Source: Candidatus Iainarchaeum sp. (GTDB taxonomy: Archaea; Iainarchaeota; Iainarchaeia; Iainarchaeales; UBA10219). From it: DNA of 64,000 nt. The notes below the pieces were generated by a model that was not told where the DNA came from, did no database searches, and saw nothing but the letters and a program-made list of their open reading frames with translations. Of this stretch, positions 16,283-49,458 are shown in pieces. Within the stretch, counting starts at the first letter, position 1; the number at the start of each line of letters is the position of its first letter. The stretch lies in NCBI GenBank assembly GCA_018304425.1, contig JAGVWE010000002.1, positions 64,001 through 128,000 of the forward strand. The letters run 5' to 3'. Both the position numbers and the translations under genes were made by a program.

Positions 16283-16786
16283 TCAGTTACCCAACTTATG
16301 TAAACCGAGTTTCTTTAAAAGGTGGTACTTGGACTCGGAAAAGCGTTTCTGCAACAGGATGGAGGCGAGGAAGCGCTCGGCGAAGGCCGTGGAGAACTCC
16401 TTGGCGAAGAGGCGTTGCACGCCGTTCTTTTCCAGGGCCGCTTTCAAGCGATAGCCCTCGTTGAGGGCAAGCACCAGGTCGACCTGCTGGTTGGACAGCT
16501 TCACCAGGTCGTAGACCGCATAATCGGAGGCCAAGGCATTGAAGCAGCACCGCGCGGCCTCCTCGGAGGAAACGCTTACGCCGTGCTTCAAGTACTCGTA
16601 AACCGAGGCCACGATTTTTCCGTCGCGGTAGAACAACGCGCCCTCCTCGATGCCTTCAACGCCTTCCACGGTGGCGACGAGGTAACCCGAAAAGCCCTCG
16701 TTCGCTTGCAGGAAGACCTCGCGCTTGTAGTCGGCTTGCTTGGCGTTCACGGCCTGGCGAAGCAGGCTCCCGGATGGCAGGTTCAC
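16283..16786 (-). CDS. DUF2226-like protein
   Basis: MNLPSG...GFSGYL...EEGALFYRDGKIVAS motif; minD neighbourhood. Confidence 0.7.
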   Translation of the reverse strand: MNLPSGSLLRQAVNAKQADYKREVFLQANEGFSGYLVATVEGVEGIEEGALFYRDGKIVASVYEYLKHGVSVSSEEAARCCFNALASDYAVYDLVKLSNQQVDLVLALNEGYRLKAALEKNGVQRLFAKEFSTAFAERFLASILLQKRFSESKYHLLKKLGLHKLGN

Positions 16787-16787
16787 T

Positions 16788-17276
16788 TCATCCCTTCCTG
16801 GTCGCGCCCAACGAAATCACGTGGTCCGCGTTGTTCTTCAAGGCAGCCGCACTCTGGGGGTCGGCCAGGACGACAATGGTTTCCTTGCCATAGCGCTTGG
16901 CTTTCACGATGGCCGGCGTGAAGTCCGAGTCCCGGGTCACGAACGCAATCGCCTGGATGTGGGAGTTGAAAATGCATTCCACGGCTTCCGCGGCCATGCT
17001 CACGTCCACGTCCCCAACGGTAATGACGGTCTCGAAGCCCTGGTTGACGACGGCCTCCAAGAGCTTGTTGCTCGCGTACTGGTTGAGGAACACCTTGCCG
17101 ATTTTTATGCGGCCGAACTGCTCGATGGCCTTCTTGACGTCCTTCAAGTCGATGCCGAGCTCCTTGCGGAGGATGTTGGGGCCGTCCACGTAGACCGCGA
17201 TGTTGATTTTCTTGAGTTCCTTGCCGAACTTCGACAAACGCTCCCGGACTGCCTTGAAATCGACTTTCACGCCCAC
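16788..17276 (-). CDS. NYN-domain protein (TIGR00288-like)
   Basis: VYVDGPNILRKE, GDVDV, TRDSDFTP, GKETIV, ADHVI. Confidence 0.9.
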   Translation of the reverse strand: MGVKVDFKAVRERLSKFGKELKKINIAVYVDGPNILRKELGIDLKDVKKAIEQFGRIKIGKVFLNQYASNKLLEAVVNQGFETVITVGDVDVSMAAEAVECIFNSHIQAIAFVTRDSDFTPAIVKAKRYGKETIVVLADPQSAAALKNNADHVISLGATRKG

Positions 17277-17422
17277 CCACCTCTATAAGTCGGACAACCC
17301 CAGGGGCGCCGACACAAACGCTATAAGGGCAGTAAAGTAATATATTAAGTGAATTTAAAGGAGGGGGCCGCGGAACCGGGCAACCTTTTTAAACCAAACC
17401 CCCCTATTAGCGTAGGATTTCC

Positions 17423-17827
17423 ATGGCCGAACCAGAACAGGGAGAAATCAAGTTCCACCAGGTGGGACAGCTCAAGACCGGCAGCTACGTCCTCATCGAC
17501 GGCGAAGCCTGCCAAATCAAGGACTTCGAGAAGTCCAAGCCCGGCAAGCACGGGGCCGCGAAAGCCCGCATTACGGGGATTGGCATCTTTTCCGGCCAGA
17601 AGCGGACCCTCATGAAGCCCACGAACGCGGACACGGAAGTTCCGCTCATCAAGCGTGGCAACGCCCAGGTCGTGGCCATCATGGGCGACACCGTGCAAAT
17701 CATGGACCAAAACGATTACACGACTTTCGACGTCGACAAGCCCAAGGACCTCCAAGGCCTGGCCTCGGGAGTCGAATGCGAGTACATCAAGTACGGCGCC
17801 CAAGTCAAGATTGTGCGAAAGAAATAG
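17423..17827 (+). CDS. eif5a: Translation factor aIF5A
   Basis: Hypusine site SKPGKHGAAKAR. Confidence 0.97.
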   Translation: MAEPEQGEIKFHQVGQLKTGSYVLIDGEACQIKDFEKSKPGKHGAAKARITGIGIFSGQKRTLMKPTNADTEVPLIKRGNAQVVAIMGDTVQIMDQNDYTTFDVDKPKDLQGLASGVECEYIKYGAQVKIVRKK

Positions 17828-17839
17828 GCCGCCTAATTT

Positions 17840-18763
17840 TCACGCCACCAGACGACGTAATTGCTTGTCCTTTCTCAGCGTGGACAGCGCGGCGTTCAAC
17901 AGTTCCCTGGCATCCAGCCGGTCGAGGCGCAACCGCGCGGCCACCCGGGGGAGCGGGTCCCCGCTGTAGAAGAACTCCCGCACCAGGTTTCGTTGCCTTT
18001 CGGGCAGCCGATTGATGGCGCCGCGGACGAGGGCCAGCTCCTCCCGCTTGGATGCACTCTCAAGAACGCTCGATACCATGCCCCGCGACGGCCGCTTTGT
18101 TCCCGCAGTGGCAGGGGTGACATGGACCAGGTCCCGCTGGGCGAAGACGGCGAGCAAGCCGACTTTCACCTTGTACCAGTATTCGACCATGGAATCGGAA
18201 ATCCTCTCCCGGTGTTCGGCCGGCATCGTCCGCCCCCTCAACTGACTCGGCTGCCCGCGGCGGGCAGCGGCAATCCTTTTTCGGGTGCGGCGAGGCATGG
18301 GTTTCCCACGGACGGCATCCGCTCGCTGGGCGAACACTTCCAACGTCCGCGCGGACGCTGGACGGCCTTGCAGGGCGGCGGAAATCCGGGCCCGTGTCTC
18401 CGGCGACCGGGGCTTGCCCTGCTTCGCGGCCGCGATGCGGTTGCGGTGAACGGCGGAAAAGCGTTTCCCCTTATGAGCCTCGGACCAACGCCGCCTGAAC
18501 GCCGCGCTGCGGTCCAACCACTCGCGGGCGGCCACCCGCATCTCGTTTGACGTGCGTCCCTCCAAGAGTTTCGCGAAATTCGGGCTGGGCCCGCGACGGG
18601 GGCGATAAAGGCAGGCCTCCATAGCCTCGGGTGTGTAAATGCCCCAAGCAGCGCCAAATTCACGGAGGTAGTGGTTGACCACGTTGGCGCGGGAAGCACC
18701 CCGAGAATGCAGGCTGATAGCCGGCTCAAACGTGGACATGGTCCACCTGCGCTGGCGCGACAT
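17840..18763 (-). CDS. Orphan protein: NUMOD3-like repeats plus sigma70 region 4-like HTH
   Basis: HKGKRFS..HRNRIAAAKQGKPRSPETRARISAA repeats; C-terminal AINRLPERQRNLV...VAARL...ALSTLR. Confidence 0.75.
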   Translation of the reverse strand: MSRQRRWTMSTFEPAISLHSRGASRANVVNHYLREFGAAWGIYTPEAMEACLYRPRRGPSPNFAKLLEGRTSNEMRVAAREWLDRSAAFRRRWSEAHKGKRFSAVHRNRIAAAKQGKPRSPETRARISAALQGRPASARTLEVFAQRADAVRGKPMPRRTRKRIAAARRGQPSQLRGRTMPAEHRERISDSMVEYWYKVKVGLLAVFAQRDLVHVTPATAGTKRPSRGMVSSVLESASKREELALVRGAINRLPERQRNLVREFFYSGDPLPRVAARLRLDRLDARELLNAALSTLRKDKQLRRLVA

Positions 18764-18847
18764 AAAGTAAAAGGTGATTAAGACCTATAAAAGGCTATTG
18801 GATAAAAACCGGCCAAAGCCAGAATCGTGCGAAAAAAAAGGACTGAT

Positions 18848-19579
18848 TCAGTTCATCCGTGCCCGCGAGCGCAGGTGATGCATCAATGGATTGGGGCTCC
18901 GCATCAGACTGAATTTGCGCATGAGTTGCCGGGCGAGTGCATGGGTTGCCTGGCTGCTGGTGTGGAGCTCGGCCCATCGCACGAGCAAGTCAATGAAGTC
19001 GAAGAGCGGGGCAAGCCTTTTGCGGTCACGCGCCTGCATACCCGGGTCAGCGCAGCCCCGGCCTCGGCTTTGTTTCGGCGCAGACCCTCAAGTAACTCTT
19101 GGCTGGCCCTGGTGTCCTTCATGGTCCGGAAAGCGATTTCCTTGTCTCGGATGAAACGTTCAAGGGTTTCCCTTACCACTGAAACGGACTGGTTGCGCTG
19201 CCCAAGCCAGGTGTCCTGAAGCAAGCCGAAGAGTCCCCGGCTGCTGCCAAACAATTCGCCGGCGTCCACCAGGCTGGCGGAGCCGTGCCTGCAACGCTGC
19301 ACCAAGGCCCGGTCGCGGACCAGGGACTTCACGGCATCCTGACTTCACGGCATCCTGTTTAACCGGGCCGGGGACGAGGACGGTCCAGATAAGTCGCCGG
19401 GCTTTTTCAAAAGCCAGCGCGGGTTCCACTCCTGGCCTGGCGGCCGCCAGGCCCAGGTCGACCACGGCTTGCCGGACCACGCCCAGGCGCCTGGAGCTCA
19501 TCCCCGCTTCGCGTGCCCGTTGTTCGGTGGACACCGGGCCTGTTACGGCCTTCGGGCTTCTGCGACGTTTGGACGCCAT
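18848..19579 (-). pseudogene. Frameshifted orphan gene with Arg-rich N-terminus
   Basis: MASKRRRSPK... frame broken by exact 16-bp tandem duplication 19325-19356; removing one copy joins ORF 18904..19332; probable second shift near 19040. Confidence 0.6.
19325..19356. repeat. 16-bp perfect tandem duplication (GACTTCACGGCATCCT x2)
   Basis: Directly visible at 19325-19340 and 19341-19356. Confidence 0.95.
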
Positions 19580-19807: not shown

Positions 19808-22800
19808 ATGGCCATGTCCGAGGAAACAGCCACCGTGGAAGTCGAGGGCGGCGGGGAGAACCCGTTCATCTCCAAGTGGGAGAGCTTTTACAAGCACGCG
19901 TGCCTCAAGCAGATCGAGAAGCTCGTGGGCGAGTACCCTGAAAAGCGGAGCCTCTTGATTGACTTCGTGTCCATCGAGCACTTCGACCCCGAGCTTGCGG
20001 ACGAGCTCCTGGCCAACCCCGATTACGTGCTCGAAGCCGCGAAGATGGCGATAACCAACATCGACGTCCCAGCCCTCGAACTCGAGCAGTTCCTGCCCAA
20101 CATCCGCGTCTACAACCTTCCAAAGGACCGGCAGAGCCTCCTCCGAAACATCGAGGCCGAGCACTTGAACAAACTGATTGCCGTGGAAGGCATCGTGCTC
20201 TCCATGACCGAAGTGCGGCCCAAGCTCAAAATCGCGACCTGGGAGTGCCGGAGGTGCGGGAACACGTACAAGCTCATCCAGACCGGGCAAGCGGCCAGGC
20301 AGCCGGCCGTGTGCGAGTGCAAGCACCGGGACTTCAACCTCGTGGCCGAGAAAAGCGAGTTCATCAACCACCAGAAAATCCAGGTCCAGGAACCACTGGA
20401 ACTGCTAAAAGGAAGCGAACAAGCCACCATTTTGGACGTCATCATCCTCGACGACATGGTCAACAAGGTCGCGCCCGGCATCAAGACCTGCATTACCGGG
20501 GTGCTGCGGCTCATCCAGCCCAAGGAGAAGAGCATCGTCTACGGCAAGCAATTGGAGGCCATCCACTTGGAGGAAACCGCCAAGGAATTCGCGGAAGTCG
20601 ACGTCTCCAAGGAAGAGGAAGCCGAGATTCGGAAGCTGGCCAAGGACGAGAAAATCTACGACAAACTGGTGGGCTCCATCGCGCCCGCCATTTACGGCCA
20701 CGAAGTGGTCAAGGAAGCCATTGTCTTGCAGTTGTTTGGCGGCGTGAAAAAAATGCTGCCCGGGAACCCCAGCACGCGCGGCAACATCCACGTCCTGCTC
20801 GTCGGAGACCCGGGTGTCGCCAAATCCCAGTTGATGCAGGCCGTGAACAACATCGCGCCGAAAAGCATTTACGTGGCCGGAAAGACGACCACGGGCGTGG
20901 GGCTGTGCGTGGCGCCTGATTCCCTGGTGCTGAACGAAAGCGGATTCAGGGACATCCGGGGGTTTGTCGAGGAACGGTTCGAGGATGCAACCGCGCGGGA
21001 GGAAATCCCGGGCGCGCACTCGAATCCATGCCAGGGCAAGACCATGCCCTGCTTGGGCGAAGACCTCAAGCTCAGCGAGCAACCCGTGTCGAAAATCTGG
21101 CGAATAAAAGCCCCAGAAAAGATGTACAAGATTGTCACGCAGTCCGGCCGGGAACTTTCCCTTACTCCTGCGACTTCGCTGACCCGGCTGAAAACATCAC
21201 AGGTCGCGTGGACGATGGCTGAAGAACTTGCTGAGGGCGATTACGTGGCCGTTCCCCGGCGCCTGCCGGAGGGCCAGCGGGCTAAGATCCCCTCCATTGC
21301 CTGTTTGTGGCAAAACAAGAACATCCGGGTGGTGGACGACCTGTCCAACCCATTCAAGCTAATCACGGATGCGCTGGCCAGGACACATGGCTCGCTCCAA
21401 AACGTTGCACGCGTCCATGGCCTTGACAGGGAAAGCGTGTACCGGTGGCGCATGCGAGAGTTCCATCACAGCATGCCCTTACACGTTTTTGTAAACCTTG
21501 GGTTGGAAGCCGGGCAAACCATGGAATGGCTCGCTGGCCACGTCACGGAGTGCTTCCTCGCCTACGGAAAGACCTGCAAAGTGCCGCGCTACCTGGACGA
21601 TGAGCGACTCGCGTACGTTGCCGGGCTGCTCTTCGGGGATGGCAGCATTTACCTACGCGACAACTCCGTGCACCTCCGCTTCTACAACAACAGTCAGGAG
21701 ACCCTGGACCGGTTCGACGCGGCTGTGCGGGAACTCTTTGGCCTGGAAACCGAGAAGCTCTTGGAACCGGGAAAGGTGCCGGGGCGTAGGTTTAATTCGG
21801 CCATTGCCTGGAAGCTGTTCCAGGCTTTCGGGCTCAGTAACAGGAAACTCGAGAACCGGCTCAGCCACCTGGCCACGGAGATGCCCAACAACGTGCTGGG
21901 CGCCCTGTTGAGCGGGTTGTTCGAAACAGATGGCTTCGTGTCGGACACGGTGAAGGCGTCCCCTTCCGTGGGCATCAGCACCATCAGCAAGCCCCTGGCA
22001 GACACCCTCCAACTAGCCCTACTGAAATTCGGAGTGCTCGCCAAGAAGCGGGAACGGAACGTTGCGGGACACGTTGCCCAAGGCAAAGAGATATGCGTGC
22101 GCTCGAACAACAATCAATTCTACGTGGAAGTGCGGGGCAAGGAAAACCTGCAAGCGTTCAAAAAAGGCGTTGGATTCAGGCTGGAACGCAAGCGCACGGC
22201 CCTCGAACGGGTTATCGCGCGCACCGGGAAAAGCAACCCCAACCATGACCTGGTTCCGGAACTGAAAGAAGCCATGGAAGAGGCGGGAGCGCTTTGGGAA
22301 TACCGGCATAGGCTAAGCCCCTCCCGGTCGACGCTTTCCCAGATTGCAGGGGAAAAGAAAAACGGCTTTTTCAGGGCCCTCGCGGAGTCAGACGTGTTGT
22401 GGGACCGGATTGCGCGCAAGGAAGCGTTTAGCCCTGCATTCGAGCACGTGTACGACGTCACGGTCGAAGGCACGCACAATTTCGTGGCCAACGGCTTCTA
22501 CGTCCACAACACCGCGACGGCAGTGAAGGACGAGTTCGGCGAGGGCGGTTGGACGCTGAAGGCGGGGGCCTTGGTCCTGGCCTCGGGCGGGATGGCCATG
22601 ATTGATGAGTTCGACAAAATGGATCCTGAGGACCGGAGCGCGATGCACGAGGCCATGGAGCAGGGCATGATTTCGGTCGCGAAAGCCGGCATCGTGACCC
22701 GGTTCAAGACCGAGACCTCCATCCTCGCGGCGGCCAACCCCAAGTACGGAAGGTTCGACCCATACCAGAACTTCATGCAGCAAGTGGACCTGCCGCCCAC

Positions 22801-23533
22801 CCTGATTTCGCGGTTCGACTTGTTCTTCATGATAAAGGACGTGCTGGACCGCGAAAAGGACAGCCGGATTTCCGCGCACATCCTGAAAACCCACCAGGCC
22901 GCGGAACTCCTCTTACAGGAAAAACGCGGCACCCTCAAGAAGGGCCAGCGCAAGGAAATCGAGGAGATTCAAAAGATCGTCACGCCCGCCATTGACGGTC
23001 AACTCCTGCGGAAGTACATTTCGTTTGCCCGGCAAAACGTTTTCCCCGCGCTGAGCCGGGAAGCCATTGACGCGATTTCGGTTTTCTACCTGGACCTGCG
23101 TGAACAGGGAAAGAAGGAGGGAACCTATGCCGCGACCCACCGGCAACTGGAAGCCATGGTGCGGCTGGCGGAGGGCTCGGCCCGGGTGCGGTTGTCCGAC
23201 ACCATCGAGCTAGTGGACGCGGAACGCGCAATCCGGTTGTTCAAGACCTCGCTGCAGGAACTCGTCATGGACAAGGAAACCGGCAGAATCGACATCGACT
23301 TGATCAACATCGGGCAGAGCCAGAAACAACTCGAGAACATGAAGAAGGTGCTGAACCTCGTGAAAAGCATGAGCGCGGAACTCGACATGGTGCCCATCGA
23401 GGACATCATCAGCGAAGCCAAGACCGAGGGCATCGACGCCGACAAGGTCAACGAGATACTCAACAACCTCACGAAAGCCGGCGATATTTACCGGCCCAGG
23501 CACGGGTTCGTCAAGTCAACGGAGAAGAAGTAG
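19808..23533 (+). CDS. mcm: Replicative helicase MCM (intein-containing)
   Basis: Zn finger CRRC..CEC, Walker A GDPGVAKS, Walker B IDEFDKM, AAANP, SRFDL, C-terminal wHTH. Confidence 0.97.
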   Translation: MAMSEETATVEVEGGGENPFISKWESFYKHACLKQIEKLVGEYPEKRSLLIDFVSIEHFDPELADELLANPDYVLEAAKMAITNIDVPALELEQFLPNIRVYNLPKDRQSLLRNIEAEHLNKLIAVEGIVLSMTEVRPKLKIATWECRRCGNTYKLIQTGQAARQPAVCECKHRDFNLVAEKSEFINHQKIQVQEPLELLKGSEQATILDVIILDDMVNKVAPGIKTCITGVLRLIQPKEKSIVYGKQLEAIHLEETAKEFAEVDVSKEEEAEIRKLAKDEKIYDKLVGSIAPAIYGHEVVKEAIVLQLFGGVKKMLPGNPSTRGNIHVLLVGDPGVAKSQLMQAVNNIAPKSIYVAGKTTTGVGLCVAPDSLVLNESGFRDIRGFVEERFEDATAREEIPGAHSNPCQGKTMPCLGEDLKLSEQPVSKIWRIKAPEKMYKIVTQSGRELSLTPATSLTRLKTSQVAWTMAEELAEGDYVAVPRRLPEGQRAKIPSIACLWQNKNIRVVDDLSNPFKLITDALARTHGSLQNVARVHGLDRESVYRWRMREFHHSMPLHVFVNLGLEAGQTMEWLAGHVTECFLAYGKTCKVPRYLDDERLAYVAGLLFGDGSIYLRDNSVHLRFYNNSQETLDRFDAAVRELFGLETEKLLEPGKVPGRRFNSAIAWKLFQAFGLSNRKLENRLSHLATEMPNNVLGALLSGLFETDGFVSDTVKASPSVGISTISKPLADTLQLALLKFGVLAKKRERNVAGHVAQGKEICVRSNNNQFYVEVRGKENLQAFKKGVGFRLERKRTALERVIARTGKSNPNHDLVPELKEAMEEAGALWEYRHRLSPSRSTLSQIAGEKKNGFFRALAESDVLWDRIARKEAFSPAFEHVYDVTVEGTHNFVANGFYVHNTATAVKDEFGEGGWTLKAGALVLASGGMAMIDEFDKMDPEDRSAMHEAMEQGMISVAKAGIVTRFKTETSILAAANPKYGRFDPYQNFMQQVDLPPTLISRFDLFFMIKDVLDREKDSRISAHILKTHQAAELLLQEKRGTLKKGQRKEIEEIQKIVTPAIDGQLLRKYISFARQNVFPALSREAIDAISVFYLDLREQGKKEGTYAATHRQLEAMVRLAEGSARVRLSDTIELVDAERAIRLFKTSLQELVMDKETGRIDIDLINIGQSQKQLENMKKVLNLVKSMSAELDMVPIEDIISEAKTEGIDADKVNEILNNLTKAGDIYRPRHGFVKSTEKK
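20906..22510 (+). mobile_element. Intein with LAGLIDADG homing endonuclease in MCM (535 aa)
   Basis: Begins CVAPDS after GVGL, ends FYVHN before T; blocks LAYVAGLLFGDG, LLSGLFETDG, VYDVTVEGTHNFVANG. Confidence 0.95.
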
Positions 23534-48954: not shown

Positions 48955-49026
48955 GCGGAGGTGGCAGAACGGCTATGCATCGGGCTGCAGACCCGAAGAT
49001 AGAGGGTTCGACTCCCTCCCTCCGCT
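48955..49026 (+). tRNA. tRNA-Cys(GCA)
   Basis: GCGGAGG/CCTCCGC acceptor, TCGGG-CTGCAGA-CCCGA anticodon arm, TTCGACT, U discriminator. Confidence 0.95.
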
Positions 49027-49458
49027 TTAAACGCACCGGAAATGTACCATCAATAGTTCTAAAAGTCCCAAAAGGGAATCCACTATAACAAGGATTGAAA
49101 CTATTTGGGGGCATTCGGCACCAAGATTGCTTTAAGCGCCATAATAACGTTTTTCATTATTTTAGGTCGTTAGCGGTTTTTGCGGTGGGCGGCGGATTTA
49201 CGGCTATTGTAATAGCCGTAGAATAAGGGTTTGGCGCCTATTGTAGTAGGTGCAATGGATAGCAAAGTGCTCATTGGCGGGCAAACAGTATCTCTATGGG
49301 CATAGAGATATCTATGGTTGTAGACAGGGTGAATCGGCAGAGGTTCGTTGTATTGAGCAATACCGTGTCAATTATTGCCCAAAATAATGGGCAACACAGT
49401 ATATACATGGATATGTATATATACCTTCCCATGTATAGGTTGCTGTGGATGAGTGCAT

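Follow-up and report, generated by a model that had tools for sequence, protein, structure and literature searches.

A nuclease-free archaeal protein family joining NUMOD3-type repeats to a sigma-70 region-4-like domain

Introduction

NUMOD3 is a minor-groove-binding helix that is paired with a helix-turn-helix (HTH) motif in the homing endonucleases I-HmuI, I-TevI and I-BmoI, where the NUMOD3 units precede the HTH in an extended, modular and probably monomeric DNA-binding arm (PMC3664794). Here we describe an archaeal gene whose product is built like such an arm, with no nuclease domain detected. It is found in a stretch of 64,000 nucleotides (the window) from Candidatus Iainarchaeum sp. (GenBank assembly GCA_018304425.1, contig JAGVWE010000002.1, positions 64,001 to 128,000 of the forward strand) and occupies the open reading frame (ORF) at window positions 17840-18763 on the minus strand, hereafter the target gene. 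The original prediction, made from the letters of the window, had proposed a nuclease-free archaeal fusion of NUMOD3-like repeats with a sigma-70 region-4 domain, and had regarded such a domain as anomalous in an archaeon.

Archaeal transcription initiation relies on TBP, TFB and TFE (PMC7289017). Sigma-70 genes (fam00359) have nevertheless been described in DPANN archaea by Castelle et al. 2021, who ruled out mis-binning, found no anti-sigma factors and called the mechanism unclear (PMC8204110). InterPro sigma-70 region-4 signatures have been reported on archaeal Tfx/LuxR-like proteins as well (PMC5413776).

Results and Discussion

Domain organisation

The ORF has the limits originally given for it, with 307 codons, an ATG start and a TGA stop. 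The following parts were distinguished in the protein.

17840..18763, minus strand: whole ORF (P0001), 307 residues, isoelectric point (pI) 11.7, 17.3% arginine; stop codon at 17840-17842
18479..18763, minus strand: N-terminal domain, residues 1-95, five helices in the model, conserved in the family (profile A2)
18188..18472, minus strand: five NUMOD3-type repeats of 17-19 residues, residues 98-192 (Pfam NUMOD3, PHROG, pattern scan, AlphaFold helices)
18431-18469, 18380-18418, 18329-18367, 18269-18307 and 18197-18235, minus strand: the repeat units by pattern scan
18068..18187, minus strand: conserved helix with the motif YW..I/V....L...F (residues ~193-209) and a linker of low confidence (residues 210-232)
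17843..18067, minus strand: sigma-70 region-4-like four-helix domain, residues 233-307, with the Pfam Sigma70_r4 match at residues 249-298 (17870-18019)

The C-terminal domain

By profile comparison and by modelled fold, the C-terminal domain is homologous to sigma-70 region 4 (sigma-4). The Sigma70_r4 profile of Pfam matched the target protein over its full length (positions 1-50 of 50) with 19.0 bits and an E-value of 9.7e-4, below the cut-off of 24.1 bits. The predicted match to the region-4 scaffold was borne out in extent and not in the score of the single sequence, which stays below the threshold, and the homology emerges clearly only once its relatives are added. Sigma70_r4 and Sigma70_r4_2 were each matched in ten of the sixteen aligned family members at E <=0.01 (best 1.8e-7 and 5.7e-8 respectively). 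When the profile of these sixteen members was compared with all PDB sequences, the first 27 matches were sigma factors, FliA (1rp3) reaching E 1.1e-11 over profile positions 229-301, whereas the first non-sigma matches were NarL (1.5e-3) and GerE (2.3e-3). The generic NCBIfam family TIGR02937 for extracytoplasmic function (ECF) sigma factors was matched by the target at its region-4 end only (profile positions 96-163 of 165).

The AlphaFold model of the target protein has a mean predicted local distance difference test (pLDDT) score of 82.1, with values above 90 within the sigma-4 domain and below 50 in the linker at residues 218-231. In the VIA comparison with 48,161 representative chains, ranks 1-26 were all occupied by sigma region 4 with Z-scores of 10.6-8.0, a root-mean-square deviation (rmsd) of about 2 Å and 57-80 aligned residues; the top matches were SigL (6dv9_F; Z 10.6, rmsd 2.2 Å, 75 residues), 3hug (10.2) and the SigE-DNA complex 2h27 (10.1). 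The lower ranks included LuxR-type chains (Z 7.7 or less, El222 at 7.7), the archaeal factor 8hno (6.8) and UPF0122 (1xsv, 6.5). Foldseek likewise returned only sigma factors and RNA polymerase-sigma complexes in its top rows, with weak E-values (best 0.055). Tfx, UPF0122 (YlxM) and LuxR/GerE proteins share with the domain the general three- to four-helix HTH fold. The domain is nevertheless closer to sigma-4 than to these families both by family profile (E 1.1e-11 against 1.5e-3 for NarL) and by fold (Z 10.6 against 6.5 for UPF0122), as had been predicted, and no match to Pfam UPF0122, TFX_C or GerE was obtained in the target at E up to 10.

The sigma-4 HTH of sigma factors reads the -35 element, as in the solved complex 2h27. 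The strings on which the original prediction was based (AINRLPERQRNLVREFFY, LPRVAARLRL, ALSTLR and DARELL) are all present in the ORF, and its observation that DARELL replaces the usual recognition residues agrees with the family consensus, in which the 'GTV..R' signature of the recognition helix is missing. A comparison of the consensus sequences shows that ECF-like proteins from the order retain this signature. The recognition-helix columns differ among the members, whereas the scaffold positions L253, F265 and L296 are conserved in the family alignment.

The repeat array

Four to five NUMOD3-like repeats had been expected and five units were found by the pattern scan, at residues 99-111, 116-128, 133-145, 153-165 and 177-189. 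Units 1 and 2 are canonical (GKRFSAVHRNRIA and GKPRSPETRARIS) whereas the other three are degenerate. Pfam NUMOD3 matched the target above its cut-off (23.3 bits against 20.4; E 6.2e-5), which upholds the identification of the repeats, and the PHROG homing-endonuclease families 314 and 655 matched residues 89-200 only (E 7.9e-5 and 1.7e-4). In the AlphaFold model there is one helix for each repeat unit (residues 104-114, 121-132, 138-151, 158-168 and 182-209). The helix following the array has the consensus YW..I...LL.EF..RGL in the family alignment. No nuclease family was matched in the target at E up to 10 (Pfam, NCBIfam) or in the sixteen aligned members at E <=0.01 (Pfam).

NUMOD3 was matched in ten of the sixteen members with a best E-value of 4e-34. 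Two kinds of array with the same 17-residue period occur in the family, one being NUMOD3 (.GK..S.ETR.KIS...) and the other a 'DPEF' type (RKL..DPEFR.......). Homology between the two units was not supported by hhalign (8%) although their periods are equal and they align in register. The number of repeats per member ranges from about 2 to 12 or more. A search across genomes with the NUMOD3 profile gave no matches, not even to the target, and is hence uninformative.

The N-terminal domain

The N-terminal domain was missed by the original prediction and is the most novel part of the protein. It is conserved over about 95 residues with the consensus ..RF...SVGRAAVL..RGA.R..V..H.F.RYG.KWGI.S..EM...LF....G..PN...LFEGKTP.EI..AF..WL.K (alignment A1). 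In the 14-row profile A2, positions L18 and G22 are invariant and R14, Y36, F53, G58 and F67 nearly so; the conserved positions hold no set of His, Asp or Glu residues and thus nothing suggests catalysis. The basic leader that had been taken as a clue to the target of the protein belongs to this domain, and the protein is basic throughout, with a net charge of +39 that is positive in every segment.

Modelled alone with AlphaFold2, the domain forms five helices with a pLDDT of 90.6 and a predicted template modelling score of 0.76. Searches with sequence and fold gave no relatives. The only Pfam match was DUF6697 at residues 77-130 with E 0.11, and an NCBIfam YebC/PmpR match (residues 91-132) merely reaches the end of the domain. 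The best match of the N-domain profile to PDB sequences was a designed protein (E 0.0018). Against the 48,161 chains, VIA gave no Z-score of 5 or more (best 4.6); the weak rows included transposase HTHs (SETMAR, Z 4.0; Mos1, Z 3.6) and PadR, and no sigma region 2 chain was among the 50 fold matches listed. The best E-values were 3.2 with Foldseek in PDB and 2.3 in BFVD, and an Atlas search with residues 1-96 gave sub-threshold leads only, such as the N-terminal parts of IS6, IS256 and IS630 transposases. As its model is confident and relatives were not detected, the domain is a candidate for a new fold family.

Neither the target (E up to 10) nor any of the sixteen members (E <=0.01) gave a match to Sigma70_r2, and the profile of the N-terminal domain had a hhalign probability of only 4.2% when compared with that of the ECF-like proteins from the order. 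Because no region 2 was detected, the target protein is not considered a sigma factor, and the proposal that it is aimed at a bacterial-type transcription machinery loses its footing.

Family and distribution

A phmmer search of 1.84 billion representative sequences returned 1345 matches to the target at E <=1e-3, 26 at E <=1e-10 and one at E <=1e-30, most of which match in NUMOD3 only. We examined 19 of the 150 matches listed, plus P0008. The whole build of the target was found in thirteen of the examined relatives and in one further protein from a genome locus. P0067 and P0120, the latter possibly cut, have the N-terminal domain and the repeats without sigma-4, P0041 has the repeats and sigma-4 without the N-terminal domain, and P0024 is an incomplete sequence from a variant with 98% identity. 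By eye, P0084, P0124 and P0161 resemble ordinary GIY-YIG endonucleases. BLASTP of the target, which is independent of the profile, gave E-values down to 4e-26 with the relatives.

Alignment A1, of sixteen rows, shows one order of parts, namely the N-terminal domain, an array of 17-residue repeats, the 'YW' helix and sigma-4, to which the target conforms. The target scored 113.6 bits against the N-domain profile, of whose own fourteen rows it is one. The names carried by family members in public records are automatic only, being 'NUMOD3 domain-containing DNA-binding protein', 'RNA polymerase sigma factor (sigma-70 family)' or hypothetical protein.

Our sample of the phylum comprised 215 genomes, 196 of them in the order of the target. 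The N-domain profile was matched in fifteen of these 196 genomes, eleven at E <=1e-18 and four weakly (4e-7 to 3e-4), and in none of the other nineteen genomes of the phylum. The target genome has a single copy, whereas four, three and two copies were found in genomes G188, G182 and G181 respectively. Further family members were found in loci of ten other genomes. The family is thus restricted to a lineage of Diapherotrites/Iainarchaeales-type DPANN archaea.

Other searches added little. Relatives of P0001 were not found by pattern search of genome contigs; the A3 pattern gave one locus in genome contigs, one in metagenome contigs and none in viral contigs, the last being a weak test. Keyword searches of records for further proteins with the N-terminal domain gave no new members.

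Besides P0067, a 205-residue ORF (L030:6496-7113) consists of the N-terminal domain and repeats only. In one genome (G009), three small ORFs of about 111-143 residues (L008:1573-1908 and on contigs C31 and C35) consist of the linker and sigma-4 only and closely resemble the C-terminal end of full-length members, P0029 among them.

Genomic context of the family

Nine copies in eight loci were compared together with the window, and no neighbouring gene was common to all. Four nearby genes are common to the loci of genomes G037 and G188 only, and one or two neighbours to each of two further pairs of loci. Directly beside the copies lie mainly housekeeping genes (DNA ligase, ProRS, a radical-SAM enzyme, RIO kinase), whereas single copies adjoin a phage-type integrase, a HEPN/nucleotidyltransferase pair and a PD-(D/E)XK nuclease. 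The last of these was considered as a nearby partner in trans and rejected for the target genome, where the homologue lies about 66 kb away.

The target gene is outside any intron or intein. It follows a block of DUF2226, NYN and aIF5A genes (window 16283-17827) that has a divergent arrangement and is conserved across the order, and in which NYN adjoins aIF5A in 21 of 29 loci of relatives. In the 1.5 kb downstream of aIF5A the target was found in none of the 29 loci and a homologue of any window gene in two, so that synteny stops directly after aIF5A. A metagenome contig from a related strain, with 20 differences in 159 nucleotides of aIF5A, also diverges right after the aIF5A stop.

Sigma-like genes in archaea

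Sigma-4-type HTHs are not new in archaea, and the anomaly that the original prediction saw in such a domain disappears. In addition to the published DPANN genes, Pfam Sigma70_r4 matched in all four archaeal control genomes; Sigma70_r4_2 matched in four of the four at E <=0.01 and in three of the four at E <=1e-5. Within the order, PF08281 scored above its cut-off in 38 of the 196 genomes. Seven ECF-like proteins of about 190-240 residues from the order were aligned (A4), and Sigma70_r2 was matched in five of them (best 2.4e-12).

One such protein is encoded in the target genome itself, on another contig (C5; L037:1360-2079, minus strand). This 239-residue ECF-type sigma-like protein scores 45 bits with r4_2, 36 bits with r4 and 51.5 bits with TIGR02937 (cut-off 42.9), and its gene adjoins a PIN-domain gene and one for a YdjM-like membrane protein.

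Comparison with known systems

The arms of I-TevI, I-BmoI and I-HmuI have the same order of NUMOD3 followed by HTH. Unlike these enzymes, the target family lacks a nuclease, has five or more repeats in place of one to three and carries an HTH of the sigma-4 type. It also adds a conserved N-terminal domain, occurs in an archaeal host and is encoded outside an intron or intein.

The likeness to ECF and FliA sigma factors is one of profile and fold over about 70-80 residues and includes the helix preceding the HTH, whereas region 2 was not detected in the target, the recognition-helix signature is not kept and NUMOD3 repeats are joined to the domain. The DPANN sigma-70/ECF-like genes (fam00359; L037:1360-2079 and alignment A4) share with the target family the archaeal order and the sigma-4 module, which was matched between the full-family profile and the ECF-like proteins of the order with 97% hhalign probability (E 5e-11, 70 columns). 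One member of the target family was even automatically named 'RNA polymerase sigma factor (sigma-70 family)' by JGI (Joint Genome Institute). The ECF-like proteins are about 190-240 residues long and have region 2 in most cases, whereas the target family carries the N-terminal domain and the repeat array instead; it may nevertheless overlap with fam00359.

Nuclease-free proteins in which a NUMOD3 array precedes a C-terminal HTH were also found with HTHs of the transposase type (P0004, P0005, P0007, P0010 and P0020; HTH_23, HTH_29 or HTH_28). Their HTH belongs to other families, the N-terminal domain is not shared and the likeness to the target is confined to the repeats (22-46% query coverage). 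The single modules, nuclease-free combinations of NUMOD3 with other HTH types and DPANN sigma-like genes are therefore already known, whereas the N-terminal domain, the 'DPEF' array as an alternative to NUMOD3 and the pairing of NUMOD3 with sigma-4 in a conserved family of archaea are new. No account of a NUMOD3/sigma-4 fusion was found among the literature listings and passages covered.

Building blocks from homing endonucleases, from bacterial sigma factors and from a lineage-specific domain have thus been recombined in a stable archaeal family, which forms a second, differently built class beside the unexplained DPANN sigma-like genes. If target sites are found, the variable repeat number would test how NUMOD3 arrays measure distance along DNA, which is of interest for engineered DNA-targeting arms. 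At present the target is an uncharacterised regulator-like protein of an uncultured organism and its interest is moderate.

Proposed function and alternative explanations

We lean towards the view that the target is a nuclease-free modular DNA-binding protein that regulates specific genes by reading an extended site, which corresponds to the repurposed HTH regulator offered as one option by the original prediction. Most likely it would act as a repressor or activator on archaeal promoters of the TBP/TFB type and not as a specificity subunit of RNA polymerase. The NUMOD3 helices would lie along the minor groove, as they do in I-TevI, I-HmuI and I-BmoI, with the sigma-4 HTH placed in a major-groove site at one end and the N-terminal domain at the other, where it could read a second site or contact a partner. 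Such an extended monomer would recognise one long asymmetric site whose two ends would be spaced according to the number of repeats, and specificity would come from the variable recognition helix. I-TevI is known to repress its own promoter.

Several observations weigh against a gene-specific regulator. The pI of 11.7 is equally suited to unspecific coating of DNA or RNA, and the Sigma70_r4 score of the target itself falls below the Pfam cut-off (19.0 against 24.1 bits). The patchy distribution (15 of 196 genomes), the presence of up to four copies in a genome and the unconserved neighbours would sooner be expected of a mobile or dispensable gene than of a core regulator. Finally, the existence of split forms means that the parts can work apart, so that the picture of one long site is not forced.

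The same patchy and multi-copy occurrence (four copies in G188, three in G182) would suit a DNA-targeting arm left over from a selfish homing system, or still at work in one, whose nuclease has been lost or is supplied in trans and whose gene persists free-standing between housekeeping genes. NUMOD3 matches outside the family are mostly endonucleases with GIY-YIG (PF01541) or Vsr-type (PF04480) domains, and the PHROG families matched by the array are homing endonucleases as well. The copies occupy different positions in different genomes, lying between housekeeping genes (DNA ligase, ProRS, RIO kinase, aIF5A/MCM), with one beside a phage-type integrase and one beside the PD-(D/E)XK nuclease. 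The target itself stands at the synteny break after aIF5A (21 of 29 loci with NYN-aIF5A, none with the target following), where the contig of the related strain also diverges. We nevertheless regard a homing origin of this kind as unlikely, for no nuclease was found in the sixteen aligned members at E <=0.01 and the conserved positions of the N-terminal domain (R, G, Y, F and L) lack a set of His, Asp or Glu. The GC content at third codon positions (GC3) is host-like, the partial synteny around copies in two genomes of different families is what vertical descent would give, and the patterns used gave no relative on viral contigs, which was a weak test. An architectural or nucleoid-associated protein without sequence specificity, or an RNA chaperone, that coats nucleic acid through its basic helices would agree with the high pI, the arginine content of 17.3% and the positive net charge of all segments. 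It would also agree with a repeat number that is free to vary between about 2 and 12 or more, and with the ability of a second repeat type of 17-residue period to stand in for NUMOD3. Coating, however, does not call for conserved globular domains at both ends, of which one is an HTH that reads sequence, and occurrence in 15 of 196 genomes is unlike that of a core chromatin protein, which leaves this explanation a little more doubtful again.

A sigma-like initiation or anti-initiation factor, whose sigma-4 domain docks on bacterial RNA polymerase, or on the archaeal enzyme together with the ECF-like proteins, was judged the least probable of all. In its favour, the homology to sigma-4 is genuine, with ECF and FliA sigmas the nearest, genes combining sigma regions 2 and 4 occur in the target genome and its order, and the role of the DPANN sigma genes has been called unclear (PMC8204110). 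On the other side stand the failure to detect region 2 in the target and the sixteen members, the hhalign probability of 4% between the N-terminal domain and the ECF-like proteins and the loss of the 'GTV..R' signature from the family consensus. Archaeal initiation moreover proceeds through TBP, TFB and TFE (PMC7289017), and no signal peptide or secretion context was seen by eye. Scarcely more probable is a broader, speculative scheme in which the sigma-4 modules of DPANN archaea, in both the ECF-like proteins and the target family, would form a lineage-specific layer of promoter selection; here the N-terminal domain would replace sigma region 2 and dock on RNA polymerase or TFB, while the repeats and sigma-4 would pick the promoter.

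Gene, locus and host

The target is a native and maintained gene, as seen from its GC3, the intact reading frames and a TATA-like box. Its GC content is 0.657 against 0.587 for the window, an excess that resides in the first and second codon positions (Arg, Ala, Gly and Pro), whereas its GC3 of 0.77 is near the 0.80-0.86 of its neighbours. The reading frame is intact and so is that of a 97%-identical variant. The first ATG is backed by the family alignment, in which the R-W/F motif at residues 6-7 aligns with the relatives. One further feature was read upstream of it.

18786..18792, minus strand: TTTTATA, candidate archaeal TATA box, 23-29 nucleotides upstream of the ATG, read from the sequence

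The position of this candidate box would fit a leaderless archaeal mRNA. No RNA sequencing run was listed for the locus, a result that carries no weight in either direction.

The target gene and aIF5A (17423-17827, plus strand) are convergent with 12 nucleotides between their stops. Beyond aIF5A lie the NYN-domain gene, the DUF2226 gene ('conserved in archaea') and a gene for a MinD/ParA ATPase, whereas on the other side an intein-bearing MCM gene is located about 1 kb from the target. The presence of aIF5A, the intein-bearing MCM and the archaeal DUF2226 around the target gene identifies the host as an archaeon. In NCBI records, proteins encoded by two genomes of the order have 'Candidatus Diapherotrites archaeon' as their source name, which makes the host a DPANN-type archaeon. 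The host genome has 1.48 Mb in seven contigs and is 92.6% complete.

The MCM gene (window 19808-23533, plus strand) encodes 1241 residues with an intein-like insert, in which a middle part resembling a homing endonuclease appears, from the translation alone, to lie between the two AAA+ halves. Between this gene and the target there is an orphan ORF for which no Pfam family and no homologue in the 195 other genomes of the order was found. An exact 16-nucleotide tandem duplication (GACTTCACGGCATCCT twice) is located at window 19325-19356; on the minus strand it forms the junction of the overlapping orphan-ORF frames 19343-19579 and 18907-19332, and a single copy would read through. Contigs from three sequencing runs (X2, possibly the source, X5 and X8) cross the duplication without gaps. 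The orphan ORF with its duplication may be no gene at all.

Elsewhere in the window, an Rfam CRISPR-DR7 match was found at 49065-49101 (43.6 bits against a gathering score of 37), beside tRNA-Cys at 48955-49026.

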